Source: Strigamia acuminata | Taxonomy: Eukaryota | DNA: 64,000 nucleotides | Reading direction: 5' to 3' | Assembly (NCBI GenBank): GCA_949358305.1 | Contig: OX442314.1 | Location: 31,558,001 to 31,622,000 of the forward strand | Shown here: positions 3,546 through 32,703 of the stretch, piece by piece | How positions within the stretch are numbered: the stretch's first letter is position 1 | How the letters are laid out: each line of letters begins with the position of its first letter | Notes under the pieces: model-generated | The model's database searches: none | Told to the model about the DNA's origin: nothing | Seen by the model: only the letters and a program-made list of their open reading frames with translations | Translations under genes and position numbers: made by a program

Positions 3546-5027
3546 TCCATAGTGGTCGGCTCCTTGGGGACAATCCCAAAGAAAACCGTGGAACATCTTT
3601 GGTCGGTGGCGTTGTGTTCGAGCAGATTGCTGGAGAATCTGAGTCGGGTCGCGCTGAACAGGTCTGCCCGGTTATGTCGTTCACTATCTTTGTGAGATTT
3701 TGATTCCCTCGGTGAATAAATTGGATAGTTTGGTTACATATATCAGAAAAGGCGACTCAGTTGATAGTTGTTCGTGTGCGTGGGTTAACCTCTCGGACAC
3801 TTACATCAGGCGCAAAAATAGCCTCCTTCCAAATAGGTTCATCTTTTGCCAAGCTGGGGACCTTAAATTTTTCGTCAGCTGACAAGAATAAAGGTTATGC
3901 GAGCGTCGGTGACGCTTTTGGCTTGGCCGAAGCAGTACGTGGCTTTTGGGATGCAGGAAAAGGCATATGCGGTTGGGGGGAGAAAGCTCCCGGTTGTTGA
4001 CCTTTACGGTTGGTCGGCTTAGGGTTGTTACGACGAAAATGTGAATTGAAGTTATTTCCCTGATAATTGACAACTTGTTGAAAGTGTTTCTTTCTTTTTT
4101 AAAATTTCTTGCGAAAAGTGAAAAGTGAAAAAGCGAAGTTGTGAACTTCTGTTCTCTAACAGTAATAAACCTGGGATCATAGCAGACAAGATTTCACCTA
4201 GTGAAATGAGATCCCAACCGGACGACATAAGAACAAAAACATAAGTAAGAACGAAAACAGGTATTTTAGAACACTACCTTTTGCTTAGTATTTTTGAGGC
4301 AGAACGCAGAATCAAGCCTTGGTGTGCCGCCAACGCAGCTGCTGCTGTTGTCCTTGATCTATCCTGATTCAAATTCCCAGGCGTAGAGGTAGAATTTACT
4401 TCTATTCTCTCCAGTTCTTTTTCAAATTCATCAACTTCTATCTGCGCCAGGAAGAGCGCATCAAAATATATCTTGGGGTCCCTCGTGTCCTTGACGGACA
4501 CGCCTAAAATATATACAGTATTTAGCATTCATACAGGACAAATAAATAAATGAAATTTAGCTTACCTTCATAATAATTATTTAAAGGAGCATAATTGCTA
4601 TATGCTATAACAAATTGATTGGAAAGGTATTATTCAAAATGAAGATATAATAACTTTTACCAAGTAAAAAAAAATTATTCTTGCAATCTGGGCATTTATT
4701 GCGCTCCAAAACATCTGTTGAGGAAAGTGTTAAGGAATGTCTTATTCAAAGAGAAGTAATGTCAGTTATGTCAAAAACCTAAGGTGTGCAGAAAATTATG
4801 ACTTTCAAGTTCTCATTATCCGAGGCATCTAGATAATGTGTCGAACTTTTATATACTACCGATGTGATGTTTCGGTCCTTCCTCTGTGTGGGTCCTTGTT
4901 GGTTAATGTAAAGTCTCTTTTTGGCCACAAAATGATTTGTTCTTAACTTGATCGAAAGCAAGCAACAACTGATACAAACATAATATTTAGATTTTAAAAG
5001 TAAACTAGCACAACAAAAGAACAATAC

Positions 5028-5620
5028 TGTGACCGCCAGGCCACCTAGGTGACCTACGGCACTGCCACACACCACCGTGCGGCCCCAAAGGTCAACCCCT
5101 ACGCGGGTAGTTGACCTAGCCCGGGGAGGAGGGAGTGGAGTGGTGTGGTGAGGAGGGAGTGTTGTGAGAGAGTGGAGTGTGGGACACGGCCTGAGAAGGA
5201 CGTGCCTGCAGCAGCTCCCCGAGAGGAGAAGGTGTTCATCTGGGAGGGACAAGAAGTGTCCCGGTTTGACTCTGTACTCCTCACCATTCACCACGATGAT
5301 ACTCAGTATGACGGCTCCCACCGTTATACAGCCTCCATAAGTGGACGCGTGGGTCGTAGGTAAGTACGACACGAATGTTAAGTCGAACCGACCACGCCAC
5401 GCATTGGGTTCCCACCCAGTGTGTGGCGGGTCGGTTGCCGGTGCGGTGTGCCTTCGTGGCACCTCTGCAGCGGGTGACGGGTTTCCCCATACCCCTAGAC
5501 AACGCAATAAAGGCCAACCAACCAATATTGTGGGAAGTCTCCGTCATTTACGTGAAGTATGCGTCCCTACCAAGTGTTCTCAGTCCCCTGACTACACTGG
5601 AAGAGACCATAGCAGTCACA
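5028..5620 (+). repeat. 5' LTR of element 1
   Basis: TGTGACCGCC...GCAGTCACA, with AATAAA near 5506. Matches 16799-17391 except three substitutions that I could spot. Confidence 0.95.
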
Positions 5621-5621
5621 A

Positions 5622-5647
5622 TTGAGGGCCCTGTCCTGGATTTGAAC
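5622..5647 (+). promoter_or_regulatory. Primer-binding site, imperfect complement of the tRNA-Pro 3' end
   Basis: TTGAGGGCCCTGTCCTGGATTTGAAC versus the tRNA-Pro complement TGGGGGCTCGTCCGGGATTTGAAC, immediately after the LTR. Confidence 0.75.
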
Positions 5648-7962
5648 TTGTTAAATTTTTTTTTTTTGCCCGCCATTTTGTTTTGCTTTGTGTGCAAACC
5701 CTTTGTTTCATTGTGGTTGCCGTTTGCTTCAATTTTTTGTTGCAGGTTGTTTTATTCATTGTTCAGAGTGTTGGTACATTTTTGCTTTATTTTTTGGCGG
5801 GGAACAATTGTATTGTTTTTCATTTTCTTGTTTTTTTTGGATTTTGGGTTAAATATTTTTCTTTGAGACTGAGGAATTTGAAGGGTGTTTTTGTTTGTCA
5901 CTTTGAGTCGCGTGAGAGGCTTAGTTGTGAGGGCTGGGCACTTTTTCATTTGAAGGTCTTGGAATTATGTTTTTCTCTGTGCTGTTGTGGTTGGGGCTCT
6001 GAAATTTATTTTCAGACGCGCTGCAACTGACCAAAGCACTTTGATGTTTTGTTCCTCTAATTAGCTTGGGGAGTCTTGCTCTTTCCCTTAGGCGGCTACA
6101 GGAATAGACACCATTGTGTATCTTCTTTTGTGTTCTCCACCCCTTGTACTTAATTGAACTGCAGTGACCTTGTTTGAATTTTCATTTCTGCTGTTGTTTA
6201 ATTTTTGTGCCGGGTTGGGAAACATTTGTTTTTCTTCTGCCACACTTTTTCTCTTGTTTGGGCTGGGTAATGCTCAGGTCTTGGGTTAATTTGTGCAATT
6301 TTATATTATTTTTTTTTTGGTTTATTTTTCTTTTGTGTTTGGTCTGGTTAGGATTGGATTGAGTTGTTTTTTTTAGATTCATCTCGTGAAGGTAATATTC
6401 AGCCAACACACTAGTTTAATTTCCAATTTTATTTTGTTTGTTTGGTGTTTTTCTTTGTGTGTTTGGCTTGGCTTGAGTCTGACCTCGTTTATTCCTATAA
6501 TTAGCTTGGGGGGACAAGGGTCAACCAGCACACAAGTTGGACACCCCCTTATTTTTAATTTTATGATTTTTCTTTTCTTGGTGTGCAACCTATAGAGGTG
6601 AGAAACCATTTGTAGGTGCTCAGATGTTGTGGTTTGGAGTGTTGAATTAGATCTGGTTCATCATTTCAGACACAATTGAAAGTGGGGTGTGTAGAGGTTG
6701 GTTTTCACGAGCCAACAATGTGTTACTCATGACATTCCTGAGGTTACGCTGACGTAATGAGTGTCTTAGAGGGTTGACACCACACTGGACATTTGGTAGA
6801 TTAAGTTCTTTTATTTCTCTCTCTGGGTCGGGCGATTTGGTGCTTTTTCCGAGTGTGTTTTTTGGCGGGAAATGTGTTTGTGGTGTTGTTGTGGTGGGCA
6901 GGCATGCTGCTGGGTGCAGTATATCCCAGTTCAGCCCTGTGCTTCGCCCGGACAGCAATAAACTAATGCGGTATATTTAGGGAAGCGCTGTTCATTACTG
7001 GCCAGAGGTACATTCCTGGTTTCAGCGGTTTGATTAATCTTTTGAATTACAGGCACATGTACTTAAGGAGAGCACACGGAGACTGGGTTTCCAACCCTGT
7101 CCCGGGCACTGGTGGAAGCAGTTTGACGTGGTTTTGGCTTTTTTGTGTTTTTGTGGCCACTTATGGCACATTTTTGTCAATTTCACTGCCTTACTGTCGA
7201 AATTGGGTCTCGGACAGCAGGGAGGGCGGCTCTTGCAGGGGACTGCTGGAGTGTCGAGCCTAACGGTATTTGCTTTCAAACCGCGCGTGGAATGCTTGCA
7301 AATACGAATTGGGTGGCTAACAGCTTCAAACGAAGACTGTGAATCCAGCCCAACATCTTTCAGACTTTTATTTTTTCAATGTGCTGTGTGCGGATCCCTT
7401 TTCCCAAATTTTGTGAAACACACCACATTTTTCTTGTTCCCTTCTTTTATCCTATTTCTACTCTAATTTCATATCCGGGTTGGAAAGGAGTGAGGCTCCC
7501 GGGGATTGGACCTAACTTTCCCTGGCGCTGGACTGTGTTCAGTTGCAATATTCTCCGATCTGACTCAGGCTCGGTTCGCCAATTTCCCTTCACTCTTAGT
7601 CTGAGGCGACTGAGTCACATTTTTTTTTGCCTCATCAGGATTATCGCGATCTTGATGGTGTTTTGGGTGTGATTTCGGTGCAGGAGCAGGCAATATCGGA
7701 GGAATCCTAAAACACGCGATTTTAGCGTTTTCAGCAGAGGTTAAACCTGGTGGTAGACGTGTACACCAGCGCAAAGGAAAACGTACGACCTTAGCATCGA
7801 AGCTGTGGGGCGCGATGAGAAAATGCCACGAAAAATCGATATACGCAGTTTTTTCTACTTGGTTCTGGCGCGAATAATTTAGAACACGAAGGGAAAGACG
7901 AATCATGCATTGGTTTGTTAGTTTGGGAGTGTCAGAGAACTTCCAGTCGCCCATTTCTATCT

Positions 7963-8082
7963 TCTGGGGCGTGGATAAATGCCGGAAAGGTGTTCGCTAA
8001 TTTTTTATTTTGGGGCGTGGATTAAGAACCAAAATATAACCGCTAATTTGATTTTTTGGGGCGGAGAGATGAACCAAAACTT
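7963..8082 (+). repeat. Imperfect ~45-50 bp tandem repeat (3 copies) in the element 1 leader
   Basis: Recurring (cgctaattt)...tggggcg(t)gga...(aaccaaaa) blocks. Confidence 0.55.
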
Positions 8083-8590
8083 GATGTTTTATTGTTTTCA
8101 ATAAAAAGACTTTCATTGTAATTTATCATATTTTATTTTTGAAGGTACACGGAATGCAGTGACAGGTTGATGACGAGGTCAGGGTTCGACCATTGACCCG
8201 CCACTCCTCTGTTTAATCGGTTTTAGCATAAAAGGCATGGACTCTGTTGAAAGAACAGGATGGCACCCCGGTGCGCGACTTTGGTCTTCACCAGATGTTC
8301 GATTGCCAATTAGCTAAAAATAGAATCAAGGGCCCTTGAGGCACTGAGAAGCGCTCGAAGGTCCAACACATGGCCAGTGGTTGGACATTCCTTTGAAAGG
8401 GATGCTGAGATCTTTTGTAAAATAATTGTGGTCGACCTAGTTGTAGGTGGCTGTAATTGGTCAAGGTACCCCTGACTTTGGTTTGCCTGTAAGAAGTGAA
8501 AGTGTCCTTGGATTCCTTCTCACTCCTTGCCTGTGCGTGGTCTTGACTGCACACACTTGGTTACCACTGGTTGCAAAGAAATAGCATCTT

Positions 8591-11497
8591 ATGGCAAGCA
8601 AGGATCTCGATTCGGCTTGGGCCAGAGAACTGGCTGTTCTTTGCGACGTCGATCCATGCGACATTAAGACGCAGGACGATGTCATGGAACTCATTCGGTT
8701 ATTTCAACGCGAAAAGCAGCTGGCAGCACTTGATGCCGCCGCTGCGCATGGCGAAGCAATTTGGTCGAATTTTGCCGCAGAACAGGTGCGTAAAGCAGCT
8801 GTTCGTGCGCGGAATGAGGCCAGCGTCATGGCGGAAGCTTGGGCAAGATCCGCGGTGTCGCAGCAATTGGATTTCAGTAAACGTATCATGGAATTGTCCA
8901 GCAGGTCGACGATAACTCGAGCCGCTGCATCGGACGATTCGGACGTTGAAAGCGAGCCGGAGGAGGTGGACCTGGTCCCGGAGAACGGTGTGGTTCAACC
9001 CGCCGAACTCTACGACCGGATCTCGCCTCCCCAGCCGCTAGAAACAGTCGAGGCGGATGAAGGCGTCGTAGCAGATGGCTCACCGCCCGACCAAGTCTGT
9101 TTCGTAGGCTTAGCCGTCGGAGCGGTCTGGGATACGGTGAGTGTCGCCGGACTGGGCAGAGATTTCCCTCTCCCGTTTGTCGACATTCGTTTTTCCGACC
9201 GCGAAGCGGTGGCACTTATGGATACCGCTGCTTCAGGGCAGTATATGAGTAGTGCCGCGGCCGAGAAATACGGACTAACAGCCTCGATTGAACCCTGTGA
9301 CGATTTCGTTAGGGTTATGACGGGCGATAGAGTAACCAGTCCCTTGGGGACGGTGAGATTGTACGTCAGCTGGCAGACGGGGGAAGATTGGTTACGGTTT
9401 GCGGTGTTACCTTCTTCTTCTAACTTCATCCTTTTGGGGTGTAGTTGGTTGAGGGAATATGGCATTGTAATTCGCATTTCCCGGAACGATTGGTTTAAAG
9501 CCGATAATCCAGGGATGACGTTTCCTTTCGCTCCTCGGCCTAGACAGCTAGACGACAGTGGTGCAGATGTTGACAAGTGGGCAAGGGTCACGCTGGAATA
9601 CGGCGTCGACACGGCCGCACTGTCACTATCATCCAAACAATTAGATTTGTTGGAAGACTGCAAAATAGAAGATATGCGGAAGATGAGATTGGCTCGTGTG
9701 CTCGACGAGTTCAGCCACACCTTCAGCGAGATGGGAGGCTGTCATCCGACGGTGGAACTTCGGATCCCCACGTTTAATGAGCCATCCTTCTCGTGCGATA
9801 TCAAACCAACATCCCCTGCTCAAGCGAAAGCTCTGCGCCGGTTGGTGAGATGCGCGCTGAAAAAGGGTGAAATAGAAAAGAGTGCCAGTGCTTATAGGAA
9901 CCAGCCGGTGATAAGTATATTACCTGACGGAACCTTTGACGCTTGCATCGATTTTAGACAGCTGAATTCAGTCACGGAGAGAGACACGTACCCGGTCCCG
10001 TCTATTCCCATGATTTTGGCCTGTTTGGAAGGGAGTCTATTCTTCTCTACTTTGGATCTGGCTATGGGCTGCTTTCAGGTAAGGATTGCGCCCAAGGACA
10101 GACCTAAGACGGCGTTTTACACACCTCAAGGTACCTTTCAGTTCGTGAAATTGCCCTACGGATTGTTGAATACCCCTGTGGCATTTCAACGGCTGATGGG
10201 GAAGGTGCTCGGCGAATCGAAGTTTAAGTGGGCGTTGCCCTACCTGGACTCGATTGTGGTGTTCAGCAAAACTTTTGAGGAACACCTGACACACCTGTCC
10301 GACGTGCTGAGCAGGCTGAGCAAATTTTGCTTGACCGCTAGCCCGTCTGGATCTTGTGTGATATCTACTTCTTGGGACTTTCTTGGCTATTCTATGACTC
10401 CCGCAGGTTTTCGACCGAACGAACGCCGTGTTCAGGCGATCGTGGACTACCCGCGACCAGCGAATGTCGCCCAGCTGCGACGTTTCCTCGGCATGTTTGG
10501 AGGAGACACACCGCCGATCGAGGGACTGGAACATTTGTCGAACCCGCTGGATGACCTACTCACAGTGGGTGCGGAATGGAATTGGTCCGACGAGTGTCAG
10601 GGAGTATTCGAATTTTTCAAGGATCATCTTTCGCGTGGGATCGTGCAGCCGATGCCTGATTTCGGCAAGACCTTTGTCATCCAGGCTGCCGCAAGTTTGA
10701 CCGGGCTCGGTGCAGTCCTCACGCAGATCGATCATCTGGGGGTCAAAAGACCCGTTGCTTACGCGAGTCGTGCGCTGCAAGGCGCCGAGACAGTGTTAAG
10801 CCCGCCGGAACTCGATTGTCTGGCAGTTCTGCAGGCAGTCGCTTCCTTTCGATCTTTCATCGCGTATTCAAAATTCGAAATCGAAACAGGTTGCGTGGCG
10901 TTGTTTTGGTTATTACACTCAATCAACACGTCAGGTCGCCTGGTGCGGTGGGCAATGCAGCTCCAACAGGTGAGATTCTCTTTTAAATTCAGGAGAGATG
11001 TGGACGATCGGATCGCAGTCGCTCTTTCTCGTGTGGGCCTAGATGACGATGAAACGACATTGGCGGCCTCACGCGAAGAAAAAGCTGCTTCCATGCTTGC
11101 CCACACTCTGGTCTCAGAAAGCCTCGCTGGTGCGATCATGTCTTACGATGAGATTAGGCAGAACCAGCGGGCAGACGCCGATTGTAGCGCGATCATGAGA
11201 TGGTTAGACGAAGACCGAGAAGACGACAGTCTTCTGGCCCAACTCCCACCACCCATGGCACAGTACATGTCCGATTATACGTTCGGCGAATGCGGAGAAT
11301 TGTGTATCAATACCCCGTTCTCACCCGAATCGTCACTGACCAGGACGGAGCAAGGCTTGGACGTAAAAATCCTGATGCCTGCACCGCTAGCTGACCGTTG
11401 CCTCGACGTCATTCGATTGCATCCTCGCTACACGCAGGATAACGCAGCCGACATGGTGAAAAGGCTACGACGCATTTTTTTCTGGCCAGGAACTTAG
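8591..11497 (+). CDS. pol: Ty3/gypsy Pol-like protein (aspartic protease-RT-RNase H) with substituted catalytic motifs; ends at the start of the integrase zinc-binding region
   Basis: ALMDTAAS (PR), CIDFRQLN, LDLAMGCFQV, KTAF.TP.G.FQF..LPYGL, YLDS, QAAASLTGLGAVLTQ, PVAYASRAL, GRLVRWAMQLQ, FFWPGT-stop. Confidence 0.9.
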   Translation: MASKDLDSAWARELAVLCDVDPCDIKTQDDVMELIRLFQREKQLAALDAAAAHGEAIWSNFAAEQVRKAAVRARNEASVMAEAWARSAVSQQLDFSKRIMELSSRSTITRAAASDDSDVESEPEEVDLVPENGVVQPAELYDRISPPQPLETVEADEGVVADGSPPDQVCFVGLAVGAVWDTVSVAGLGRDFPLPFVDIRFSDREAVALMDTAASGQYMSSAAAEKYGLTASIEPCDDFVRVMTGDRVTSPLGTVRLYVSWQTGEDWLRFAVLPSSSNFILLGCSWLREYGIVIRISRNDWFKADNPGMTFPFAPRPRQLDDSGADVDKWARVTLEYGVDTAALSLSSKQLDLLEDCKIEDMRKMRLARVLDEFSHTFSEMGGCHPTVELRIPTFNEPSFSCDIKPTSPAQAKALRRLVRCALKKGEIEKSASAYRNQPVISILPDGTFDACIDFRQLNSVTERDTYPVPSIPMILACLEGSLFFSTLDLAMGCFQVRIAPKDRPKTAFYTPQGTFQFVKLPYGLLNTPVAFQRLMGKVLGESKFKWALPYLDSIVVFSKTFEEHLTHLSDVLSRLSKFCLTASPSGSCVISTSWDFLGYSMTPAGFRPNERRVQAIVDYPRPANVAQLRRFLGMFGGDTPPIEGLEHLSNPLDDLLTVGAEWNWSDECQGVFEFFKDHLSRGIVQPMPDFGKTFVIQAAASLTGLGAVLTQIDHLGVKRPVAYASRALQGAETVLSPPELDCLAVLQAVASFRSFIAYSKFEIETGCVALFWLLHSINTSGRLVRWAMQLQQVRFSFKFRRDVDDRIAVALSRVGLDDDETTLAASREEKAASMLAHTLVSESLAGAIMSYDEIRQNQRADADCSAIMRWLDEDREDDSLLAQLPPPMAQYMSDYTFGECGELCINTPFSPESSLTRTEQGLDVKILMPAPLADRCLDVIRLHPRYTQDNAADMVKRLRRIFFWPGT

Positions 11498-13855
11498 AAA
11501 TTCCTTGTTTCGGCTGGATTTAAAGTGAAGAACGTTCGTCAGGCGTAGACACGGCGAATCCTCGTCATTGTCACACCGACAAACACAGAATTGGAACCGT
11601 AAGTTTCCCTGCAACGATGACTTATTGAAACGGATGTTTTTTATTTTGTATCGAACTCACCCGTTTTGTAGCAGTCACTTGTTGCTCGGTAAAGTTGGGA
11701 AAATCGATTAGCAGGCCCGTGATTCGTCTCGATGGTCGCCGATCGGTCAGTGTTTGTCACTAGACCGATGGCACTGTTGAATTGATTGATTAAGTCACTG
11801 AAGTTGGTCGGAGAAGTTTGTTTAATTACCTGCTTTCCGTGGCCAGTTTCAGCGGTCATGTTGCGGTCTCAACCGATGAGAATCGTGGCGTTCATGTGAC
11901 GTCACAAATTCTCGCGGAGGAGCGTAACCATGGCGACGGTCTCAGCACCGCAGCCGCGATTTTTAAGCAGGTTTTATTTCTCTGCCCGGGGATCGTGGGA
12001 GTTTTTCGCTAAAAAATTCGGAAAATTGTCGTGGCAATAAAATAATATTGTTTCGTGGTGTTTTTCCTGCGCTTTCTGAGAAAGATTGTCTCTTTAGATT
12101 GGGAATTAGTTATTGCACCAATTAGAGGGGTGAGGGTGTCGTGGGACCCAATCACAGGTCACGGGTCGAGGATTGTTCTCTGTTTAGACTCGAGGTTTCT
12201 TGTTTCTGGACATAGTCCCCGTGTGTCACTTGTTTTCCAGAGAGCGACCATTCAGCATCAGCTGACTTTTGCTTGTGTTCGTGTTCGGGAAAAGTTTTTG
12301 AGTTGCGATATGAGGGTAAGACACAAATTTATTTTCTGTTTGCATCATTTACTGTGGCCCTTTTTCTCGATTGAACCCGTGACCGATTGCTTTCTTTCGT
12401 GCCCCGGCCCCGTTATTACGTGTAACTTAGCGCTCGAGCAGGCAGTTTCGGCCGCCGCTCCTCGCTAGGAACGCAGGCGGATCAAAGTCATTTTGACCGC
12501 CGCGATCGAGTCGATTCACTGAAACACTTGTGGTTTCGACCATTTAGTGTTCAGAAAACATTTTAAGAAGTATTTTGTGTGAAGAAAACCTGAAATTTCG
12601 GCGTTTTCTCTCACGAAGCGCTTCGTGATACCTGATGCGATTGGTTTCGGTTTGCCATCCGTCTTCCATCTCGAATTTTCTATCACTTCTTTTCGCTTCT
12701 CTTTCTTCTTTTTCCCGATGTTTCTGTGAAAGGTTCTCTCGATTAGTTTTCCTTCTTCAATTCAGTTTAATTTTTTTTTGTTTTATTTTTCATTTTTTTT
12801 TGATTACGTATCTTTTTTTTTGTTTTTGCCTCCATTCGCCGTGTCCCCGGTTTTTCTTTCTGAAATAGGTGGGTATCGGCGTCGAATTCGCGAGTCAGCT
12901 GGCAAAGGTTACACCGTGACCCACGCCTAACCCCTCGGAATTCGTGCATCCCTCGTTCCTATTGTCCCTAATTGAGGTCAATAACCTGCGCGCTGGTCAC
13001 TTGAGTGGCCAGCGACACGATCTGAGACCCCCAATCTGGGAAAACAATAGCGGGCGGTGAGGGGTTGTCGCCGCGGTAAGAGGAACCGAGAAGTTCGCTT
13101 CCCGAATCACTCGCCGCCGCGGCGCGACTCGAAGAAATCAAAGTCCACTTCCGTTTGGAGTTTTTCGTTCTTTTTTTCCCCCTGTTAGTCTTCAACCCCT
13201 CCTTTGTTTATTTTGCCCCGAACTCGAGTTTCTTTCTCAGCCGGCGCATCTAAATTTTTTTTTTTTAATTCAATAAGATTATTTGGTTTTATTTCTTTTC
13301 TCTTTTCGCTCGCGTTCAGGCAAAAAAGGTGTATCACCTTTTTCGCTCGTTCGCGTATTTCTTTTCAAGACATCTTTTTTGTCACGACCGATGGTTTGTT
13401 CGTGTTTTCTGCGACTGGACTGGGTTCTGATTCAGGCGCCAGACTTCACCGACATGCCGGGCCGTTGTGCAGAACGGTCCGCCATGTTGGTTGCGGTTTG
13501 CGTTGCCGTCACCATCCCTTGCCTTGTCGTGTGTGAAATTCTTACAACCATCATTTCTTAGACCAGGCACCACGCTTTGGTCAGGATTTTATATCATCCT
13601 GATTCGGTTTAACAAATTCACGAAATTATTTCGGCTTGCATCGCCGGAGCACCGAAAATGGCTTGCGCCAGCTCGGTGTCTTCGACGATTGTGTAACATC
13701 CACTGACGTCATGTGCTCGCGTGGGAGGTTGATTTTGTCGCCCCCTCGTGCCGGAATCCTCATTCATAACCTTCACACCGCATTTCAACCCATTTTTTTT
13801 TCTCCCCCTTTCACTCCTTAATATAGTTTATTAATTTTTTATTTATTTTATCTAG

Positions 13856-16162
13856 AATTCGGGAAATGGTGGCGGCGATGGTAGCGAACAGTGGCACATC
13901 TGCCCTGTTTGCTCAGGCGAGCGCTGGGAGACATCGGCGGGCGGATGGGATTCACCGTGCGGCAACTGCCTAGGCATGGGGTTGGTGCATTTTTCCATCC
14001 CCAGGCAGAGGTGGTATGCGCGCCACTCGCAGCGACCGGGCGGCGACCGGAGTCGCGCCCGTTCGATGGTGTCGTGGATGAGCGTCGACTCGTGGGAGAG
14101 GCGGACGCAGGAGCTGTTGCGACGCGGGCATGCCCTACTACCACGTGGTTTGACGGTGGAAGCTGTCAGAGCACGGGACGGGCAGCCTGGTCCATCGGGC
14201 TCTGCGCCTCCGGCACCAAGGGTTCAGGCGGGGCGGGCGGCTTCGGCAGAGGCCCCAGCCCAGCCGAACTCGAAGCGCCAGAAGCAAGAACCAGCGCCGT
14301 CGAAGTGGACGGAGGAGATGACCGTGCGGCTGGAGACCTCGTTGGCAGAGTGGCGGGCATCCTACCCGCACGCGACTACGGTTCAGATCGAGTCCGCAGG
14401 GAAGCTGCTGCGTCGTCGTATCAAGGACAATGCGAGGAAAGCGCGGTCCGCCGAGGCGGCGAGGCAAGCGGTGGCCGCAGCTGAAGCTGCTGCTGTGCCA
14501 CCGGTCGCTCAGCAGTCATGTGGATCCGGTGGCAACGAACTGGTCGTTGTGTCCGTTCCGATGGTTGTCACCCTCCCCGTGATTGACAGTGCGCCGGAGC
14601 CCGCGCAGCAGATAGGGGTGGTCGGAGACGAGGTACAGGCTGATTCAGCAGTGTCCCTCGCTCTGGACCTTCCCGGAGTGTCTGACGAGCAGGTGGTCGA
14701 GATGCCCTCGGAGGAAGCCGGCTGCAGTGAGCAAGCAATCGCTTGCGCTTCACTCGCACTCGGAATTCCCGTGGCGCAGTTCGACGGGACGGGAGGACTG
14801 CCCCATCGTACTTGGGGTAGCCTCATGAATCTCGCGGGACGGTCGGAGCCATCTACCCCGCGGGAAGAGTGTATTGTTTCCCAGAGGCAGGACGGCGCTT
14901 GCGCCAAACTACCGATGGTACAATCCCTGATGCCAACGCCAGACGACGAGATGATGGAGTTGTCTGTTTCGGAGGACGATGTGCTGCAATTGTCGGTGCT
15001 GGAGGGTTTGTCTCTCGAAGCACAGCTGTTGCGGTGCGGCGACCCCGAGATGGTCAATGCAGGAGTAGGAGCTGCCGGAGGAGGCGAAGGATCTTCCCAG
15101 GAACCACACCCCTCTGGACAGCACGAAGGAGCGGAGTTCTTGGAACCCGTCGAGGGCCAGGTTCCGCTCGAGGTCGCCGACCTGCCGCCTGGTGCTCCGG
15201 TGGTCTGCACGGCACTTGTGCTGATGGCGGTCCCACGCCTCGAGCATGCGAACGCTCAGGTGGTGGCGCTCTGGGTCGCCGAAGCTAAGCGGTGGAGGGA
15301 ACTTCACCTGCGCTTTGTGGACGCGGCCGGGAGTGAGATCAGGACGACCAGAGCTATCGCCCTGATCCGACAGAGGATGTGGATAATCCTCAACATCCCC
15401 CCTGTCGCATCGGCCGCAGCGAGGAGAATCAGGTGGTTCGAGACGGTGCGCATCGTCGCGTGGGCGGTGGGCACTGTCATGAACGCATGGTATCTCCACC
15501 TACCATCCCCGTTCGTGGTCCAAAGTTGGACGCTGGAGCAGACGGTGGGGGTGGACCATGCGGATTTCGACCCGGCGATCTGCCGTGGCTACGTGGAGAC
15601 GTTGGCCGGGCTCCCGAGGTTGACCAATAACTACGGTCACCAACGGATGTTCGTACCGGCATCCCACGAGCCTGTACCTATCGTGATGCCACCAGAGTTG
15701 GCGGCGCACTCACCGCCACCCCCGCCTACGTACGAAGAGGTGATAATGAAGCGGGTGCACAGGCGGAAGGGCTATCCCGACCAATTTAGCCCCGACGTCT
15801 GGGATCCGGTCGAGGCGACGCACGATGCTTGCAAGCAGAAGGGGAAGGGGAAGAAGTCCCGCACTGCTCAAACCGTGGCAGCATCGAGAGAAGAAGCGGC
15901 AGAGGCGGTGGAAGCAGAGAGCAGGCAACTAATGCCTCGATACGGTCTGTACTGGAGGCGGCGAGAACTTCGCCAGCCCCAGCAGGACCCGCAGCGGTTG
16001 CAACCGAGTCTGAGGAGGAGCCGCAAGACCCCTCTCAGCCGCAACCACCGTCCAACGACAAGCCGGAGCCGTGAAAAGCCTCGACTGTCGTCCTTGGACG
16101 CGAATTGTACAAACGACGGACCTCTGGTCCCGATAATATTTTTTCCCAACAGCATGCCGTGA
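13856..16162 (+). CDS. Accessory ORF2 of element 1, unknown function (CxxCxG zinc-finger pair, acidic low-complexity region, PPxY motif); probably expressed by splicing
   Basis: The 728-aa ORF from ATG 13976 stays open upstream to 13856, just after a pyrimidine-rich tract ending TAG (13853-13855). The extension encodes CPVCSGER...PCGNCLGMG. PPPPPPTY occurs later. Confidence 0.7.
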   Translation, partial: NSGNGGGDGSEQWHICPVCSGERWETSAGGWDSPCGNCLGMGLVHFSIPRQRWYARHSQRPGGDRSRARSMVSWMSVDSWERRTQELLRRGHALLPRGLTVEAVRARDGQPGPSGSAPPAPRVQAGRAASAEAPAQPNSKRQKQEPAPSKWTEEMTVRLETSLAEWRASYPHATTVQIESAGKLLRRRIKDNARKARSAEAARQAVAAAEAAAVPPVAQQSCGSGGNELVVVSVPMVVTLPVIDSAPEPAQQIGVVGDEVQADSAVSLALDLPGVSDEQVVEMPSEEAGCSEQAIACASLALGIPVAQFDGTGGLPHRTWGSLMNLAGRSEPSTPREECIVSQRQDGACAKLPMVQSLMPTPDDEMMELSVSEDDVLQLSVLEGLSLEAQLLRCGDPEMVNAGVGAAGGGEGSSQEPHPSGQHEGAEFLEPVEGQVPLEVADLPPGAPVVCTALVLMAVPRLEHANAQVVALWVAEAKRWRELHLRFVDAAGSEIRTTRAIALIRQRMWIILNIPPVASAAARRIRWFETVRIVAWAVGTVMNAWYLHLPSPFVVQSWTLEQTVGVDHADFDPAICRGYVETLAGLPRLTNNYGHQRMFVPASHEPVPIVMPPELAAHSPPPPPTYEEVIMKRVHRRKGYPDQFSPDVWDPVEATHDACKQKGKGKKSRTAQTVAASREEAAEAVEAESRQLMPRYGLYWRRRELRQPQQDPQRLQPSLRRSRKTPLSRNHRPTTSRSREKPRLSSLDANCTNDGPLVPIIFFPNSMP

Positions 16163-16783
16163 GATGCCTGTCCCGGGACATGAACGCCGAGCCGGAAGCG
16201 AGTGACGAGACGGAGACGCCACGCCACAAGCCCACCTGCCCGACGAAAACGGATACCGGAGTTTTCCCGTTCCATCGGTGGACCTCCCGACTGTGGATCT
16301 TGGTCAGGTCCCGGTCGTTGTATATATATTATTTCTTTTTTTTTAATTATCATTTTTATTATTTGTTTAACGTAACTTTATTTCCGATTATTTTATGGGA
16401 GGATTGACCAGCCTCTCCCATCCTTGTTTTGTTTACTATATTTATTTTTTTTTTCCGTTTTTTAATTTTTTTTTTTTGTTTTAATTTTTGTTTTATGATT
16501 TCGTCCCGGGCTTGTTACGTTCAGGCCCGGTGAATTATTATTTACATTGTATTACATCAATAGTTTGTTTTGTTTTCGGCCAGTCTAGGGCGAGGTGGTT
16601 CCTGTCGCCCAATGCTGCTAACATCGTTGACCGACGGTGCGGTGGTTTTCGGTCCACCAGCACCGAAGGTCGGCGCCGGTAACCCGACAAGTTGTGGTCT
16701 TCGACTGACTTCGTTGTTGTGTCTGCCTCGACTTGCGTGTCCCCGTCGGTGTTGTGTGTGGCCCCTTAGACCTACCTTTTCTT

Positions 16784-16798
16784 GGGGGGGGGGGGAGA
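16784..16798 (+). promoter_or_regulatory. Polypurine tract of element 1
   Basis: G12-AGA directly abutting the TG of the 3' LTR. Confidence 0.9.
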
Positions 16799-17391
16799 TG
16801 TGACCGCCAGGCCACCTAGGTGACCTACGGCACTGCCACACACCACCGTGCGGCCCCAAAGGTCAACCCCTACGCGGGTAGTTGACCTAGCCCGGGGAGG
16901 AGGGAGTGGAGTGGTGTGGTGAGGAGGGAGTGTTGTGAGAGAGTGGAGTGTGGGACACGGCCTGAGAAGGACGTGCCTGCAGCAGCTCCCCGAGAGGAGA
17001 AGGTGTTCATCTGGGAGGGACAAGAAGTGTCCCGGTTTGACTCTGTACTCCTCACCATTCACCACGATGATACTCAGTATGACGGCTCCCACCGTTATAC
17101 AGCCTCCATGAGTGGACGCGTGGGTCGTAGGTAAGTACGACACGAATGTTAAGTCGAACCGACCACGCCACGCATTGGGTTCCCACCCAGTGTGTGGCGG
17201 GTCGGTTGCCGGTGCGGTGTGCCTTCGTGGCACCTCTGCAGCGGGTGACGGGTTTCCCTATACCCCTAGACAACGCAATAAAGGCCAACCAACCAATATT
17301 GTGGGAAGTCTCCGTCATTTACGTGAAGTATGCGTCCCTACCAAGTGTTCTCAGTCCCCTGACTACACTGGAAGATACCATAGCAGTCACA
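16799..17391 (+). repeat. 3' LTR of element 1
   Basis: TGTGACCGCC...GCAGTCACA followed by ATAC. Confidence 0.95.
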
Positions 17392-20300
17392 ATACAATGA
17401 CACACATGACATACTGTATTAAAGTAAAAATAAACACTTCAAATAACAACACAATAAAAAGGTGACAAACAAATGTTACATAATATGATTAAACCTAAAT
17501 CTTACATCCTTCCCCTGTACCAGGCGGCGACCGGATTGGGGCATGCATCGACAACCAGGATAGAACGTTGTCGACCCGTGAAGGTTCTCACGCAGAGAGA
17601 ACTCTTCCTATAGAATCCAAAAGCTTATTTTTTTTTGACCAGCGCTTAAAGGACCCATAAGTGTGTGTACGTGTGCGCGTACGCGCGTCCCTCGGGACAG
17701 TGGGAGCATGATGCAGCAAACCCACTGTGGGACTGTTGCAGGAAACCCGTCTGTACTGGGGAACCTGTTCCAACTCTAAGACAAGAAGCAAAGACAGTGG
17801 ATTGTGTTGCAGAACAGACACAATTCCGGGCTATTGAAGCCGAATACCATTCGTAATGGCGTGCAAAAAAAAGCGACTAGATCAACCTTTTTCCTGACAA
17901 GGGAGACAAGAGATGCGACGTTCAAGTGTCGAATCACAAGAGCGCACCGTTCATATCGGGATCAAGAGGGACAACAACGTTTCTTTTCCGAGAATCAAAT
18001 TCAAAATGAACAGGAGAACTGACCACTGCTTCAGATGCAGTGTCATGTTAATTAGTAGGGGCACTGCGATGCTGCTTGTATGAGCCAACCCTTACTAACA
18101 TTGCGGAGGAGTTTTCCAATTAGCATGGAAACTAAAGCTATCTAAACTCGAAAAAGTACAAAAAAGGAGATCACTGCCTGACCGCAGTGTTTCAAGAGAC
18201 AGACAGCACGCATGGCTGGTCAACGTTGAGAGACAAGCTCAAGAGACCTGGCTCGAGCGTCCCCGTGCTCATTAAGAGCGTACACCAGAGCAGAAAGGAA
18301 AAAGGGTTTTTCTTTTGAAAGGAATCCAAAACGAGGAGGAGGAGATGGCCATTTCTCAGAATGAAATGCCAATCGGGTCAATAAAGACGTCATACACCCA
18401 TGATCAAGGCTAGTTCTACATGCCAAGAAACCATGACCAGAGTAACTGATATTCTCTTTGAATGCCCTGGGAACCGTTAGCTAAAACTGTGACAATTAAC
18501 TAAGGAACTCAGAAGCTCAAAGCTAGGGAACATACACTAAACTCAAAGGGAGAAGGTGCGAGAATGCACGCAATACACGGAACACTAGAGAGAAAACCAG
18601 AGGGAACTCAAACATAAGAGATGAAAAGCTTTTCTGCTCAGATCGTTGTGCCCAGCAACCAGATATAGGCGTGTTCCGAAGCTTAACTGTAGCAAGCACA
18701 AACTGCTTTTTGCCCAATTCACAGAGCCACTAGAAATGAAAGAAACACCCACGTTTCAAAACCCAATCTGGTGCTCAGAGGCGACACACTTGTAATGTTT
18801 AAAATGGAATGAATAATTTATTTAAGGCTTAAATAAATTAGTCTTACAAAATAATGAATAAAGTTATACAAATTCTAATTACTTAATTAAATGTTAGTAA
18901 TAAATGGAAAATAATGAAATAAATGCGAGTCGTGGCTGGCTTGGCGTAGTCTCGCTTTGTCTTCTCCAACAATGACGGTGAAACAACGAGAAGTTCGTTG
19001 TTTCTCTTCTCAAATGGCGGAACGCAAAAGTGCGAGAGTAGACTGAAAAGGTTCGGAAAATACTTAAATTTAGTTTAGTTTCGACTTTACTCACGCTCTT
19101 TCTCCGGTTTTCTCGTCAACTGGCTATTCAGGAAATTTCCGGTGACTCGGGAAATTCCGTATGCGGCTGGTCGACGTGAAATCTGTTTCTCTCGGTGATG
19201 ACACTGCGATTCGGGAGAAGATAAAAGTAAAAAGTCAAGAAAAAGACATCCTCCACCTCACGTCTGGCAGGTGCCACTCAAGGCGGCGACGGAGGCCTAC
19301 ACTCTAATTTCAGCAGTAAGGGACGCATGGCAGGAAGATTACATCGATTGTTTGGGCACTTGGCATGTTCTCTCGCCTGTGTCGCCCTCCTCATCAATGG
19401 ACGAGCGATGGGATGTTGAGTAGACAATCAATGCCTAGACGATGCCGAATCAGGAGTGTGTTATGTGGATGGAAGTTTGGACTTTTGTTGGCGGTGACTG
19501 AGGACTGGTGCATTACTTCTGTATTTGTTCGAAATGGTACAATTGCATCTGTTGTCGCGCCCCCACCCCTCACTTCACAACAGGGGTGGATTGTGTCTGA
19601 CCAGTCGTTTAGGGCGGGCGGGTCCAGATGCGCGAACGAGATGCGTCTAAGCGACTGACACTCAATTAGTGAATAGGGATTCCCAAAATGTAGTTTTTTG
19701 GTAAATAATCAACCCTTGCATTTACATCAAATTAGAATGAATACAAAGTGATTTATTCTTTGATTAAATATCAACTAATTATTAAGCGATCAAATTTAAT
19801 AACATTTCTTAAGTAGTGCTAACAATTATCTACTATCAACTCTCTAACACTTTTACAGTTTGTACTAACAATTATTCACTACTATGTTCTAACACTGATT
19901 TCAAACACATAGTAAGACATTAAAACGAATTGACATGCATTGCAACTAGGAAGAAAAGAAATCATAACTTTCCTGTTTGTTGGTTGTTTTCTTGTATCCT
20001 TCAACTCCAGTGTCGGCCTTGGAAGCTCACCGCGATGGGTTGGTGGTTTTTACTTCACTCCTGCAGGTGGACGAGGCTCGGGCAACTCAACTCACAGCAG
20101 GTGATTCCTCTCCGGTTGGAGATACATCTGGACTTGATTAGCATCTCCTGGTTGGAGGAACATCTGGAAAGTCACCCTTTTTATCCAAAAATGGGTATAA
20201 AAGTGGATGCTGGAACAAGACTATCTTGTTCCAACTTGGTCAGCAGGTTCCATGTTGCAGCATAAACTCATTTCCTTAGACAGAGGAAAAGGTTTCACAG

Positions 20301-26733: not shown

Positions 26734-26919
26734 TACGCGCCTAGAAGACAAACAAAGCAAATTCCTCATTCCTATGTGAAAAAGAAGGGGAGAAAGTGTA
26801 GCAAGGCCACGCATGCGCTGGAGGCCTTGCAAGGTCATGCGGTGTTGACAAACGGAGGGAGAAATAAAAGATCACAACAACCACTTAAGAGTTGGCTGAC
26901 ATCTGGCGGGTCGTAGAGC

Positions 26920-28170
26920 TTGTGTTCATTTTCTGGATGTTAATCTATGCACAGTCTTGGATCGGACCCTGGTCTCATAACTAGTACTATTCTCATGCCA
27001 TAATCTCCCTCAGCCGGCAATACATATCCTTTATCCTTCATCTCAGTGCATAGCTGGCGTAATATCTCTTTTCTGGGGATTCCCACTCCGAAAAGGCACT
27101 CTTCTTGGTTTTTCTATTGTTAGGTCAATTGAGTGTTGTAATACATGGGTACGTCCCGATACTTTAGTCATGTCTCTTCAGTGTACCATGATGCCGTGTG
27201 ACCACTTAAAAGATATTCTGATAGCACCATGTGGCTGGACTTTTTGTCAGCCATGTTCATGGCTATATTTGGTCCCACTTTTGTAATTAGATCGTCTATT
27301 TCCAATGCTTGGACTAGGGCAATGAGATGCAACTACTGTTCACTCCTGAGTTCAATGTAGCTATTACATTTCCTGTTTCCATAAGAATTTCCATTGTGAT
27401 CATTCCACCCAAAACGTTGTCTTCCGGGATTATAACTTTAAAGTTTCTTGTTCTCGACTGCTCTTTCGGGTCAAGAGTGGTCAATGCAGCAATTAACTCG
27501 TCTTTCAGGATCAGGTTAGCTTCCATTATATGAGCTGCTATTGTCGGTGTAAAACACTCCTGCTTTGTTTCCTCGTTGCATTTAATCTTTTTCAAAGCTT
27601 TAGTTACTTCTTTAAATTATGATTTGTCACTTTGGATGGGTTCCACTACTGCTTTAAAGGGTGTTAACTGGCATGGCGAGAATTGCAGACCTATCACTTG
27701 GCTGTTTAAAATTTCCACGATCATTTCCGATTTATGTATTAGCGCAAGTTCTTTTGACCGGCTAGAACTTGCGCTTACAAGTTTTTTGGATACCTTTTGC
27801 TGAGTGCTGAGTGCCTTTTCCAAATCCTCTTTTGACAGTTGCTTTCTTGGTGAAGTACATTGTCTTGCCCAGTGCCCAATTTTACTGCAGGGGGAATTAT
27901 CTAGAGTCAACTAAACGTGAGTTGAGGTTTCAGTTGTGTCTGCTTCCTTTTCAGAGGAAGATAGTGCTGATTGTAAAACTTTTTCCAAAGTTTCAGCTTT
28001 ATCTGGAGGCACTGTACTCGCATTCTCACTTGAGTTTGACTTAATGTCAGTTAACTTAATATCTTTTACTGCAGGCTGTGAAGATGTGACTGCTTGCGGT
28101 TGCAGCGGTGGTTTGTATTTTGTGGTTGTGGTTTCAAGACAGATAACGCTTTATTCTCATTCCTCCTACT
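26920..28170 (-). mobile_element. Degenerate gypsy gag-protease-RT fragment
   Basis: Knuckle-like PCSKIGHWARQC, protease-like VIATLNSG, LRQLCTEMKDKGYI, and RLCID near 26955-26941. Multiple stops. Confidence 0.65.
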
Positions 28171-29095: not shown

Positions 29096-29564
29096 TGCTG
29101 AAAAAAGGCCCGAGAACAGACGACAACGACGCGTCATAGACATTTTGTCGATATTCGATAACGGGATTTACTGGCGAGGTGAACTGGACCGTATTGGGAA
29201 TACAGTGGCAATTCACGACGCCATCCACAGTGAGTCGGAAAACCGAATTTTAAACGAAAGTTGCGAGAATAGACCCAAGTCTGACAGTGAACGTCCTGAA
29301 GCGACTCGTCGACGCATTGGCAACGAATTGTGGACGTTATATCGACGTACGGTCGACGCAACTAAGACGTATCGACGCAACAGGTACAAGAACGAGTTTC
29401 TTGCCGGAAAATCGACCGAAAAAGCCCAAAAGGACTTAAGAACGAGCCGGAAACGTTTTACGACGCAATATAGGCGTAATACGAACGGGTTAGCGACGTA
29501 ACACGTACGTACACGGTATTTATCGATTATTCCTGAGTTTTAAGCAAGAGACCTGCTGTTCCCA

Positions 29565-31844
29565 ATGGTCGAATCAGTTTCGTCAATCACGCCGTCGTCA
29601 ACGACAGCTTTTAGGATTGAAAAGTTGGATGGGTCCAATTACGCAACATGGGCATTCAACACAAAGTTAGTCCTAGATGAGAAGCAACTTTTTGGAGTAG
29701 TTGATGACAGCGATAAAGAGAAGGATGAAACGAAATTAGCTGAAAAGAAAAGCAAAGCGTTTGCAATAATTGGGCTGACCATAAAGGCACAGCAACAGCA
29801 ACATATCCGTGGTTTGAAGACACCCAAGGAAGCTTGGGACACTTTGAAAAGCATTTATGAACCGACAAACCCGTTGAGGATTGTACAGCTAAAGAAAGAA
29901 CTGTACACAACGGTGAAAAAGCCGGACATGACAATGGATAATTATTTGTCTCGATTGTCAGATTGCGCAGCGAGATTGACCAATGCGGGACAAGATGTAA
30001 CGGATACGGAGCTCGCATTGGCGTTACTATGTGGCCTTGGTGACGAACACGAGGCACTTATCATGTCGATGCATTCAATCTCGAAGACGGATTTTACAAC
30101 TAAACGTGTAAAAGAAATGTTATTGTCGGAATCCACCCGCAGATCGTCAAAGAATGCGACAAGGGCAGAAAACACAGTGCTTTCAGCACAGAAGCAAAAG
30201 CAGTTGACCAAAGGAGTCAAGTGCTACAACTGCGGCAAGTTTGGTCATTTCGCCCCGGACTGCAGCAAACCAAAAAGGGAAAAGCAGCCCAATGACAAAA
30301 AGGAATCAACAATTCCGAAAAAGCGGATGATGTCTGCTGGTTTGATCGCAACAGGAGCGACGGGGACCTGGATGATCGATTCCGGCGCAACCCACCACAT
30401 GTCCGGATACAAGGATAAATTCCTATCACTAAAGCCGACAAAGACGGACAAGACCACTATAGCGACCGGAAGAATCGTCGAGTCTAAGGCAAAAGGAGAC
30501 ATCGACTTGGTCTTCGAGCACGGGAAGAAGCAAACCCCAACCATTCTTGGGGACGTACTGTATATACCGGACATTGCGATGAATTTGTTATCGGTTTCCC
30601 AATTGGAGGAAAAAGGATACGCAATTATATTCAGTAGAGGGATTTGCAGAATTCTCGATGACAAAAATGTAGAAGTTTTGAGAGCCACGAAGAAAGGTGG
30701 CATGTATCCAATACACGAAGTAGGCAATTATGGTTTGGCATCTTCGAGTGACCAAGAGAGCCAAGAGCTTTGGCATCGTCGCTTTATGCATGTATCCGTC
30801 TCAAGTCTCGAGAAGATGGCCAAGGGCGATTTAGTCAACGGACTACGACTGAATGGGACGTCATCACAAAAATGTGACAGCTGTCTACAGGGGAAGTTGA
30901 CTCGCCAGCCATTCAAGAAGTCAAAGACGACTTTAGCAAATGGACTACTTGATTTGGTACATTCGGACATCGCCGGACCTTTTTCGACAGAAAGCAAAGG
31001 AGGAAAGCGTTTTTATATCACGTTTATCGACGACATGTCACGAAAGGTGGAGGTTTACTTCATGCGGCACAAATCCGAAGCTTTGGACAAATTCAAAGAA
31101 TATTTGGCCAGAAATGAAAATGCCACTGAAAGGAAGATAAAAACTCTAAGGACCGATAATGGACTGGAGTACTGCAATAAAGAATTTGAAGAATTCTTGA
31201 CCAGTAAAGGGATTTTACACCAACGGACCACGATTTTTACGCCTCAGCAAAATGGCGTCGCGGAGCGAATGAACCGGACCTTAATGGACCTTGTACGTTC
31301 TTGCTTAATTGATGCAAAGTTAAGCGGAAGTTTCTGGGCCGAGGCGTTTTACACAGCGGCTTACGTACGCAATCGAACGGTGACGAAGGCAACGGGAAAA
31401 ACACCATATGAGGTTTGGCACGGACGAAAACCTACGATTGGCTATTTCCGTGCATTTGGCTGCAAAGCAGTCGTCCACATCCCTTCCCAGAAAAGGAAGA
31501 AGTTGGACAAGCGAGGTGTCAAATGCATTTTTCTTGGTTACACTTCCGGTGAGAAGTCATATCGTTTTTGGTGCCCCGAGAGGCAAACCGTCATCACGTC
31601 ACGGGATGCTGTCTTCAACGAAGACGAATTAGGAGCCAGGAATGGTAAAGCTGACGACAATCCAGAAAGCGACGTGCTGACTTTATTTTTGGACGGAGAA
31701 AAGCCAAAAGATGAAGTGGACATAACACAACCGGAACCGGACCCTGAACCACCGCCGCTTCCCGCAAACAAGAAGCGTGGACGTCCAACAAAGGACACAG
31801 CGGTCAAACAAAGAAGACAGTCAGAAAGATCAAGAAGAAATTAA
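29565..31844 (+). CDS. gag-pol: Copia Gag-protease-integrase polyprotein, truncated by deletion
   Basis: LDGSNYATW, CYNCGKFGHFAPDC knuckle, WMIDSGATHHM, WHRRFMH...CDSC, HSDIAGP / RTDNGLEY / QQNGVAERMN integrase core. Confidence 0.92.
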   Translation: MVESVSSITPSSTTAFRIEKLDGSNYATWAFNTKLVLDEKQLFGVVDDSDKEKDETKLAEKKSKAFAIIGLTIKAQQQQHIRGLKTPKEAWDTLKSIYEPTNPLRIVQLKKELYTTVKKPDMTMDNYLSRLSDCAARLTNAGQDVTDTELALALLCGLGDEHEALIMSMHSISKTDFTTKRVKEMLLSESTRRSSKNATRAENTVLSAQKQKQLTKGVKCYNCGKFGHFAPDCSKPKREKQPNDKKESTIPKKRMMSAGLIATGATGTWMIDSGATHHMSGYKDKFLSLKPTKTDKTTIATGRIVESKAKGDIDLVFEHGKKQTPTILGDVLYIPDIAMNLLSVSQLEEKGYAIIFSRGICRILDDKNVEVLRATKKGGMYPIHEVGNYGLASSSDQESQELWHRRFMHVSVSSLEKMAKGDLVNGLRLNGTSSQKCDSCLQGKLTRQPFKKSKTTLANGLLDLVHSDIAGPFSTESKGGKRFYITFIDDMSRKVEVYFMRHKSEALDKFKEYLARNENATERKIKTLRTDNGLEYCNKEFEEFLTSKGILHQRTTIFTPQQNGVAERMNRTLMDLVRSCLIDAKLSGSFWAEAFYTAAYVRNRTVTKATGKTPYEVWHGRKPTIGYFRAFGCKAVVHIPSQKRKKLDKRGVKCIFLGYTSGEKSYRFWCPERQTVITSRDAVFNEDELGARNGKADDNPESDVLTLFLDGEKPKDEVDITQPEPDPEPPPLPANKKRGRPTKDTAVKQRRQSERSRRN

Positions 31845-32703
31845 GATCATGTTTTGACATTAAAGAATTGGGAGAATTGCGCTACATGTTGGGGATTGAA
31901 TTTGGCAAGAGTTCAACCGGAGGACATTTCATGACGCAAGAAAAATATATTGCAAAAGTTCTCAAGAAATTTGGACAGGACGAGGCAAAACCTATCTCAA
32001 CCCCGATGGAAGCTAACCGCAAAGAAGACGAGATGGAAGCAAAGAGCCCAGATGCAACTGGTCGACCATACAGGGAATTAATAGGGTGCTTATCCTATAT
32101 AGCAAACTGCACCAGACCGGACATTACGTTCGCCGTGAACTCCCTAGCCAAATATAAGCTGAAGATCACACACTGGAACAAGGCCAAGCGTATCCTGAAA
32201 TACCTAGCTGGAACGGCGAAGTACGGGTTACACTACGAGAGGCAAGATGGCATACTGCAAGCTTATGCTGATGCAGACTGGGCCAACTGTAAGGAGACCC
32301 GGAAGTCCTGTTCGGGAACATTGTTGAAAGTGGGCAACAATGTGATCAACTGGCAGAGCAAGAGGCAGACCGTAGTAGCCACATCTACAATGGAAGCGGA
32401 ATATGTCGCCATGGCAAACTGCGCCAAGGACGTGGTTTGGGTTCGCCGCCTGCTCGAGGAAATCGAAATGGGACAATTTGTTGGAAAAGACCCCACAACA
32501 CTCTTCTACGACAACCAACCGGCGAGGGCATTCGCCGAGAACAACGTTGAGAAGAGGAGGACCAAGCATATAGATATCCAGTTTCATTACGTGCGAGACC
32601 AGATTAAAAAGAAGACCATGAAACTGGAGTATGTGTCAACAGAAGAAAATGAGGCGGACATTTTCACCAAACCGCTTCAGCGAATCAAGTTTGACAAGTT
32701 TCG
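31840..32703 (+). pseudogene. pol: Copia RT C-terminus and RNase H
   Basis: FDIKELGELRYMLGIEF, YRELIGCL.Y...TRPDI, AYADADWA, STMEAEY, TKHIDIQFHYVRD, ADIFTKPL. The YVDD region is missing. Confidence 0.9.

Follow-up and report, generated by a model that had tools for sequence, protein, structure and literature searches.

Non-autonomous long terminal repeat (LTR) retrotransposons are usually described as keeping their cis-acting signals, sometimes with Gag, and discarding Pol. The locus analysed here raises the question of what such an element gains from keeping a Pol-shaped protein that is predicted to be inactive. It lies in a 64,000-nucleotide stretch of the Strigamia acuminata genome (GenBank assembly GCA_949358305.1, contig OX442314.1, positions 31,558,001 to 31,622,000, forward strand), hereafter the window, in which a Gypsy-type LTR retrotransposon of 12,364 nt (12.4 kb) spans positions 5028-17391. 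The first of its two long open reading frames (ORFs), ORF1 (8591-11497, + strand), runs through 968 codons without a stop and, from the ORF list and Pfam, reads as a pseudo-Pol with protease (PR), reverse transcriptase (RT) and RNase H (RH) domains. Our reading, to which we give a probability of roughly 55%, is that a multi-copy non-autonomous family keeps this predicted-inactive, Pol-shaped protein, which likely helps, in cis, to get the RNA that encodes it into the particles of a helper.

Selective loss of charged residues in ORF1

A first-pass annotation of this DNA had reported an open 968-codon frame with altered catalytic motifs, and its readings (DTA, LDL, YLDS with a TCG codon, AAAS, ELD, TGC and AVALSR) were all recovered at their places. 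More specifically, the DTG of the aspartic-protease domain (9161-9535; Pfam and alignment) reads DTA (9221-9229); the catalytic Asp is kept, the triad Gly (present in 78 of 116 homologs, with a gap in 34) and a downstream conserved Asp are replaced, and protease activity is probably impaired. The RT domain (9671-10633; Pfam, alignment and model) keeps the motif-A Asp (amino acid 489, in LDL, Asp at 10055) and the first Asp of YxDD (amino acid 553). YxDD itself reads YLDS (10241-10252), with Ser in the replaced column 554. The other conserved RT columns replaced are the fingers Lys (444) and Arg (450), the motif-D Lys (587) and thumb positions 637-642; the fingers and motif-D columns are 91-98% conserved, the Arg has given way to an acidic residue, and the thumb positions equivalent to N297, Y298 and R300 of Ty3 are replaced. 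All four carboxylate columns of the RNase H domain (10673-11032; Pfam and alignment; amino acids 700, 742, 767 and 810) are changed, one of them conservatively and three to non-acidic residues, and the motifs read AAAS (10685-10696), ELD, TGC and then AVALSR. The end of ORF1 (11138-11497; alignment and model) is a worn spacer followed by a remnant of the integrase (IN) N-terminal zinc domain, in which neither His column is retained and the frame ends ahead of the Cys pair. The first-pass annotation had ended the frame at the integrase HHCC domain; an integrase core is indeed lacking, but the stop lies inside that domain, with about 110 spacer and N-terminal residues present.

Five of the seven RT and RNase H carboxylates are thus replaced, at columns that carry Asp or Glu in 113, 112, 107, 106 and 107 of 116 homologs. 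Among 215 homologs that cover all seven, 187 keep every one; a single position is missing in 25, two in 2 and four in 1, and in none are five missing. Columns conserved at 90% or more number 43, and the nine lost in ORF1 are the five carboxylates, the fingers Lys and Arg, the motif-D Lys and one thumb Phe. When the carboxylates are fixed in advance, the loss is 5/7 against 4/36 of the other columns (p=0.0023); with sites left unselected, conserved charged columns are lost at 14/28 against 15/81 for the others (p=0.0024), and the same charged-column count in 60 homologs gives a worst case of 7/28 and a median of 4%. These two unbiased tests are preferred to a ten-site Fisher test (8/10 versus 1/33, p=2.7e-6), because its sites were picked after the losses were known.

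Conserved non-charged positions are mostly retained. The structure model of ORF1, which leans on 60 active homologs in its alignment, has a predicted local distance difference test score (pLDDT) of 78, mostly >85 in RT and RNase H, and compares with chain A of Ty3 RT at a template-modelling (TM) score of 0.83 by target length. These results show that catalytic, nucleotide-binding, thumb and zinc residues have been replaced and the fold core kept. A genetic-code artefact was considered and rejected: under the same code, a copia element elsewhere in the window (29544-32788, + strand), split across two frames, reads normal protease (DSG) and integrase (D,D,E) motifs.

We take the fingers Lys/Arg and motif-D Lys columns to correspond to K65, R72 and K220 of HIV RT. 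These HIV residues bind deoxynucleoside triphosphate (dNTP) or pyrophosphate (PMC11618517), and N297, Y298 and R300 of Ty3 contact primer and template (PMC5371799). The mutations D358N, E401Q and D426N abolish Ty3 RNase H activity (PMC5371799) and three of the four columns are non-acidic here, so the RNase H of ORF1 is very likely dead. Polymerase activity appears unlikely, with less certainty than the death of RNase H, because the three basic catalytic columns and the thumb grip are also lost. Ty3 D214N/E and Ty1 D211N keep polymerase activity in vitro, with transposition lost, and Ser is absent from the tolerated YxDD substitutions that the available text describes for Ty3 and Ty1 (PMC5371799, PMC2148107). 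The earlier statement that these acidic residues are required for catalysis was overstated for RT, where the replaced YxDD Asp is tolerant in Ty3 and Ty1.

Constraint and copy number of the family

Constraint on ORF1 is relaxed but real, as judged from variants in public sequencing runs; the stretch was found in three of six listed runs, from two studies, and one may be the source sample. No RNA run was among those listed as containing it, which has no bearing on whether it is expressed. Between 9830 and 11060, the top 40 of 235 variant rows comprise 24 silent and 16 missense changes and no stop, with a neutral silent share of 0.30 from the observed spectrum (p=1e-4). From these unphased variants, the ratio of non-synonymous to synonymous rates (dN/dS) is about 0.31, away from the value near 1 that would have spoken against selection. 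Pooled over ORF1, 30 of 48 are silent, and counting by codon, with two rows beside a gap pair dropped, gives 20/33 (p=3e-4). Five to ten stops would be expected and none is observed; under neutral simulation the frame stayed stop-free in 19 of 4000 runs at 0.05 and in 2 of 4000 at 0.075 substitutions per site. None of the best-supported 12 of 176 indels falls in either ORF (naive p=0.0014, inflated by non-coding homopolymers). That the constraint is relaxed is indicated by the ORF1 branch, 0.97 long versus a median of 0.48 in a tree of 33 sequences chosen from 219 full-core matches.

Taken by domain, the silent excess is significant in RT alone (16/23, p=1e-4) and not in RNase H. This would suit an RT in which some polymerase or nucleic-acid-binding function survives in weak or altered form, with only RNase H, protease and integrase dead; the retained motif-A and first YxDD aspartates, the in vitro activity of Ty3 D214N/E and Ty1 D211N, and an ordinary core net charge (+7, homolog median +9) point the same way. 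Nevertheless, we consider such residual activity quite unlikely, since Ser is not among the tolerated YxDD substitutions so far as the cited text describes them, and the highly conserved fingers and motif-D basic residues are replaced together with the thumb contacts matching those of Ty3. An open 968-codon frame and the absence of those best-supported indels from both ORFs would also be expected if only the translation of a long frame mattered (for RNA stability, escape from nonsense-mediated decay (NMD) or ribosome passage), the protein itself being irrelevant. Selection of this kind would act against stops alone, whereas missense variants are depleted about threefold and the loss of conserved positions has selectively passed over the non-charged ones, which makes this explanation very unlikely.

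Although it lacks the enzymes, the family is multi-copy and its insertion recent, with copy number read from contig depth, a rough guide only. At every dead site they cover, contigs at ~11-19x the flank depth agree with the window. Two X1 contigs show one difference each from the window (record 4, 10126-10789; record 6, 10823-11019), and two X3 contigs show two (record 17, 9998-10285) and three (record 19, 10287-11019), all explained by listed variant rows away from the dead sites. The dead sites are therefore family-wide, a point that the first-pass annotation had asked to be checked in other copies, and with the silent excess they support its proposal of a non-autonomous lineage that keeps a pseudo-Pol under selection. 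Signs of recent mobility are the 3 mismatches in 593 nt between the LTRs, the target-site duplication (TSD) and an element-free join in three of four runs. At that join 5025 is connected to 17396 with 14 other letters between; this form is either an allele without the element or the flank of a paralogous site.

A second subfamily, 81-89% identical and at ~6-10x flank depth, shows no gaps or only compensated gap pairs, and its frame is intact where covered. At its codon 587 the last base is not compatible with Lys (variant row 10351). The motif-D Lys is thus absent in both subfamilies, and its loss likely predates their 11-19% divergence. The variant table is ordered by highest share, apparently down to 0.418; changes common to both diverged X1 contigs would pass this cut. 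The codons of the first and third RNase H carboxylates have no such entry, so Asp is probably missing there in one or more of the diverged lineages too.

These comparisons bear on the least likely explanation, which we regard as largely refuted: that a formerly autonomous element, carried by a helper, is decaying neutrally, and that the silent excess is a relic of its active past. The long branch, with its relaxed constraint, and the existence of single-depth copies with deletions or an RT frameshift are what one would expect of it. However, random decay would not single out catalytic columns, it should have produced stops that are not seen, and the motif-D Lys was likely gone before the subfamilies diverged. 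The same verdict on random decay had been reached in the first-pass annotation, and the preferential loss of catalytic columns in a stop-free frame upholds it. A domesticated pseudo-Pol host gene of the RTL1 kind was also rejected, as the LTRs are young and the family is multi-copy, not a fixed low-copy locus.

A proposed role in cis

With no integrase core or capsid detected, the element needs a helper whatever the activity of its RT, and it would be copied and integrated by the RT and integrase of an autonomous helper. For a protein under selection in a helper-dependent element, a cis benefit is the simplest explanation, that is, one in which the benefit of ORF1 would go to the RNA that encodes it. 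We hypothesize that the nascent pseudo-Pol co-assembles with helper Gag or Gag-Pol as a Pol look-alike and carries its own mRNA along. Since the protein has lost its ligand-binding residues but not its shape, it likely makes contact with other proteins. The Gag-Pol fusion of mouse I-delta-1, described below, is a reported precedent for such a cis-acting product. Two roles suggested earlier rank low. An RNA/tRNA-binding adaptor working through the RT grip is disfavoured, as the nucleic-acid grip is itself degraded. So is a non-catalytic RT dimer subunit: the two subunits of the Ty3 dimer divide the labour, with polymerisation in one and cleavage in the other (PMC5371799), and by this analogy a doubly dead subunit would fit neither place.

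Several points weigh against a Pol look-alike acting in cis. No helper was identified and no capsid-binding module is recognisable in ORF1, and the cis role is a population-genetics argument, not a result. Both aspartates essential in Ty3 RT are kept in ORF1, and the replaced YxDD Asp is the tolerant one. Constraint is not significant in RNase H alone (8/17 silent, p=0.11), and the variants were classified singly, from the top 40 of 235 rows, which does not amount to a phased dN/dS. At YxDD the shared change is read from the contigs close to the window, since in the second subfamily this site lies under the cut of the variant table. A diverged deletion form (6881 joined to 14616), at about single-copy depth in three of four runs, lacks the whole of ORF1, and in diverged single-depth contigs RT is damaged by a deletion of 45 nt, by one that shifts the frame or by the loss of one base; the 45-nt deletion, in one contig, is in frame (10214-10258) and removes the YLDS strand. 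These deleted or frameshifted single-depth copies look like ordinary decay after insertion.

The same pseudoenzyme signature would be expected if ORF1 were kept for non-catalytic contact with a host factor, or for regulating the helper in trans as an anti-silencing factor, a decoy or a dominant-negative brake. RTs can bind host proteins, as in the structure of murine leukaemia virus (MLV) RT with eRF1 (PDB 5dmq), and in RTL1 a PR-RT-RNase H that is likely inactive has been retained to serve the host (PMC11011659). A shared benefit would nonetheless be hard to select in a mobile multi-copy family, because broken copies gain equally, and this element does not form a fixed locus of the host, being young and multi-copy; we therefore consider a host or trans role unlikely.

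A cis-acting Pol look-alike would matter beyond this locus. A Pol that seems to have been stripped of catalysis, nucleotide binding, nucleic-acid grip and zinc binding, and whose shape is kept, is nature's own separation-of-function experiment. It suggests that Pol has a task besides its enzymatic ones, most likely in assembling particles or selecting RNA, makes the packaging success of a retrotransposon's parasite directly testable and, if the reading is true, represents molecular mimicry between selfish elements. Annotation pipelines would label such elements intact and autonomous on Pfam matches alone. More tentatively, the element may stand for a semi-autonomous LTR class in which a fully disarmed Pol mimics the helper Pol and carries RNA into particles, and an orphan spliced frame, ORF2, supplies a second element factor.

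Element structure, relatives and known systems

The element is flanked on both sides by a 4-bp TSD, ATAC (5024-5027 and 17392-17395, direct reading), and bounded by 593-nt LTRs with TG..CA ends (5' LTR, 5028-5620, + strand, LTR comparison; 3' LTR, 16799-17391, + strand, with AATAAA at 17277), in agreement with the earlier count of about three LTR differences and an intact TSD. An antisense frame of 254 codons (4779-5543, - strand) covers most of the 5' LTR and is probably chance in GC-rich DNA; an old fragment at 41612-41835 (- strand) resembles the 3' portion of the LTR at ~70%. Contig depth, a weak measure when summed, is several-fold above the coding interior at 5028-5620, 6735-7181 and 7629-8075, a hint, and only a lead, that solo LTRs or other families, perhaps including the helper, share these stretches. 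Downstream of the 5' LTR is a stretch resembling a primer-binding site (PBS; 5623-5647, + strand, sequence reading), which may be a mismatched complement of the 3' end of tRNA-Pro; Rfam gave no tRNA match there, and the window holds no tRNA gene for comparison. The leader (5621-8590, + strand, 2970 nt) has 29 ATGs and no Gag remnant detected by tblastn and family search, and an Rfam match to PreQ1 in the LTR/leader was rejected as chance, below the gathering score.

ORF1 itself begins with a helical segment in the structure model (amino acids 1-105, 8591-8905, + strand), for which no match was found in Atlas, Pfam, NCBIfam or a local search and in which a search for a heptad pattern gave no clear one. 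An acidic linker follows (amino acids 106-190, 8906-9160, + strand; net charge -15), predicted to be disordered. Behind ORF1, a non-coding spacer without integrase-core remnant (11498-13855, + strand) ends in a pyrimidine-rich tract and an AG, which at 13855 is a candidate splice acceptor. ORF2, which the first-pass annotation did not mention, opens exactly after this AG (13856-16162, + strand; 768 codons stop to stop, first Met at 13976); a frame of this length has a chance of 5e-11 from composition. It carries CxxC..CxxC near its N end and a long acidic middle, has no relatives in Pfam, NCBIfam, a homolog search or Atlas, and 5 of its 10 listed variants are silent (p=0.14); its single-sequence model (pLDDT 38) is unusable. 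A polypurine tract (PPT; 16784-16798, + strand) precedes the 3' LTR.

No Gag capsid or nucleocapsid was matched in 77 non-coding frames (at least 45 codons), the ORF1 N end or ORF2, a search that a highly divergent Gag could escape; to this extent the earlier report of no capsid or knuckle holds. The same 77 frames gave no retroelement family match. Neither Pfam nor tblastn with 191 homologs, many of them carrying integrase, found an integrase core in the element; tblastn gave no match inside it beyond ORF1, and within the 64-kb window located integrase only in the copia element outside it.

The LTRs with TG..CA ends, TSD, PPT, PR-RT-RNase H-IN order and grouping of RT-RH with Gypsy Pols place the element in Ty3/Gypsy, with integrase in that order represented solely by its N-terminal remnant. 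It departs from an autonomous Ty3/Gypsy element in that no Gag is detected, the RT and RNase H catalytic residues are replaced and there is no integrase core. LARDs (large retrotransposon derivatives) are a class of non-coding LTR derivatives. Terminal-repeat retrotransposons in miniature (TRIMs) are non-coding and <1 kb (PMC10886601), and either assignment is rejected for 12.4 kb with frames of 968 and 768 codons. Elsewhere in the window, other Gypsy pol genes have left faint, broken traces (26859-27156, - strand; 49028-49189, + strand), and a 362-codon frame (54615-55703, - strand) consists of a 24-nt tandem repeat (LEEQHHQE units). The end of this frame presumably forms a RING-finger-like motif.

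The closest protein relative of ORF1 is 39% identical among 116 matches, with 75 shorter matches at no more than 47% over short stretches; the top 150 matches from a 1.84-billion library reach 42%, and the best full-length identities are 37-42%. Its exact sequence is absent from the sequence library checked, and a scan of metagenomes gave one unrelated 37% fragment only and of viral contigs none. The nearest named relatives are tick Gypsy Pols, and ORF1 falls in a clade with tick elements (ultrafast bootstrap, UFBoot, 99) that includes P0235, its sister (UFBoot 85), P0249 (Ornithodoros) and the P0272 cluster (Rhipicephalus). This autonomous Gypsy clade shares the PR-RT-RH-IN order with ORF1. 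In contrast to ORF1, the RT and RNase H carboxylates are present in those of its members for which motifs were displayed, and P0235, P0252 and P0260 carry a full integrase where ORF1 has only the N-terminal remnant.

Among the papers listed by the literature searches, with Repbase and most subscription journals outside their range, none describes a Gypsy family that is mobile and whose Pol is disarmed. Mouse IAP (intracisternal A particle) I-delta-1 is likewise a non-autonomous endogenous retrovirus (ERV) that uses helper proteins in trans and keeps one open frame, a Gag-Pol fusion whose product reportedly aids retrotransposition in cis (PMC6466679, PMC10924933). However, I-delta-1 arose by a single 1.9-kb deletion in a retrovirus-type element and carries part of Gag, whereas this Gypsy-type element has a whole PR-RT-RNase H disarmed residue by residue, no recognisable Gag and an extra orphan ORF. 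RTL1/PEG11, a domesticated Metaviridae gene, resembles ORF1 in its likely inactive PR-RT-RNase H (PMC11011659), but it belongs to the host, includes a capsid domain and has been retained throughout the placental mammals, while ORF1 lies between near-identical LTRs in a mobile family, with no detected capsid. The wheat element RLG_Quinta, semi-autonomous with RLG_Cereba as its partner, keeps Gag and drops RT and integrase (PMC11302176), the reverse of what is seen here. What we consider new is thus a protein-coding, non-autonomous LTR element with a disarmed Pol, for which IAP I-delta-1 and RTL1 are each precedents in part.

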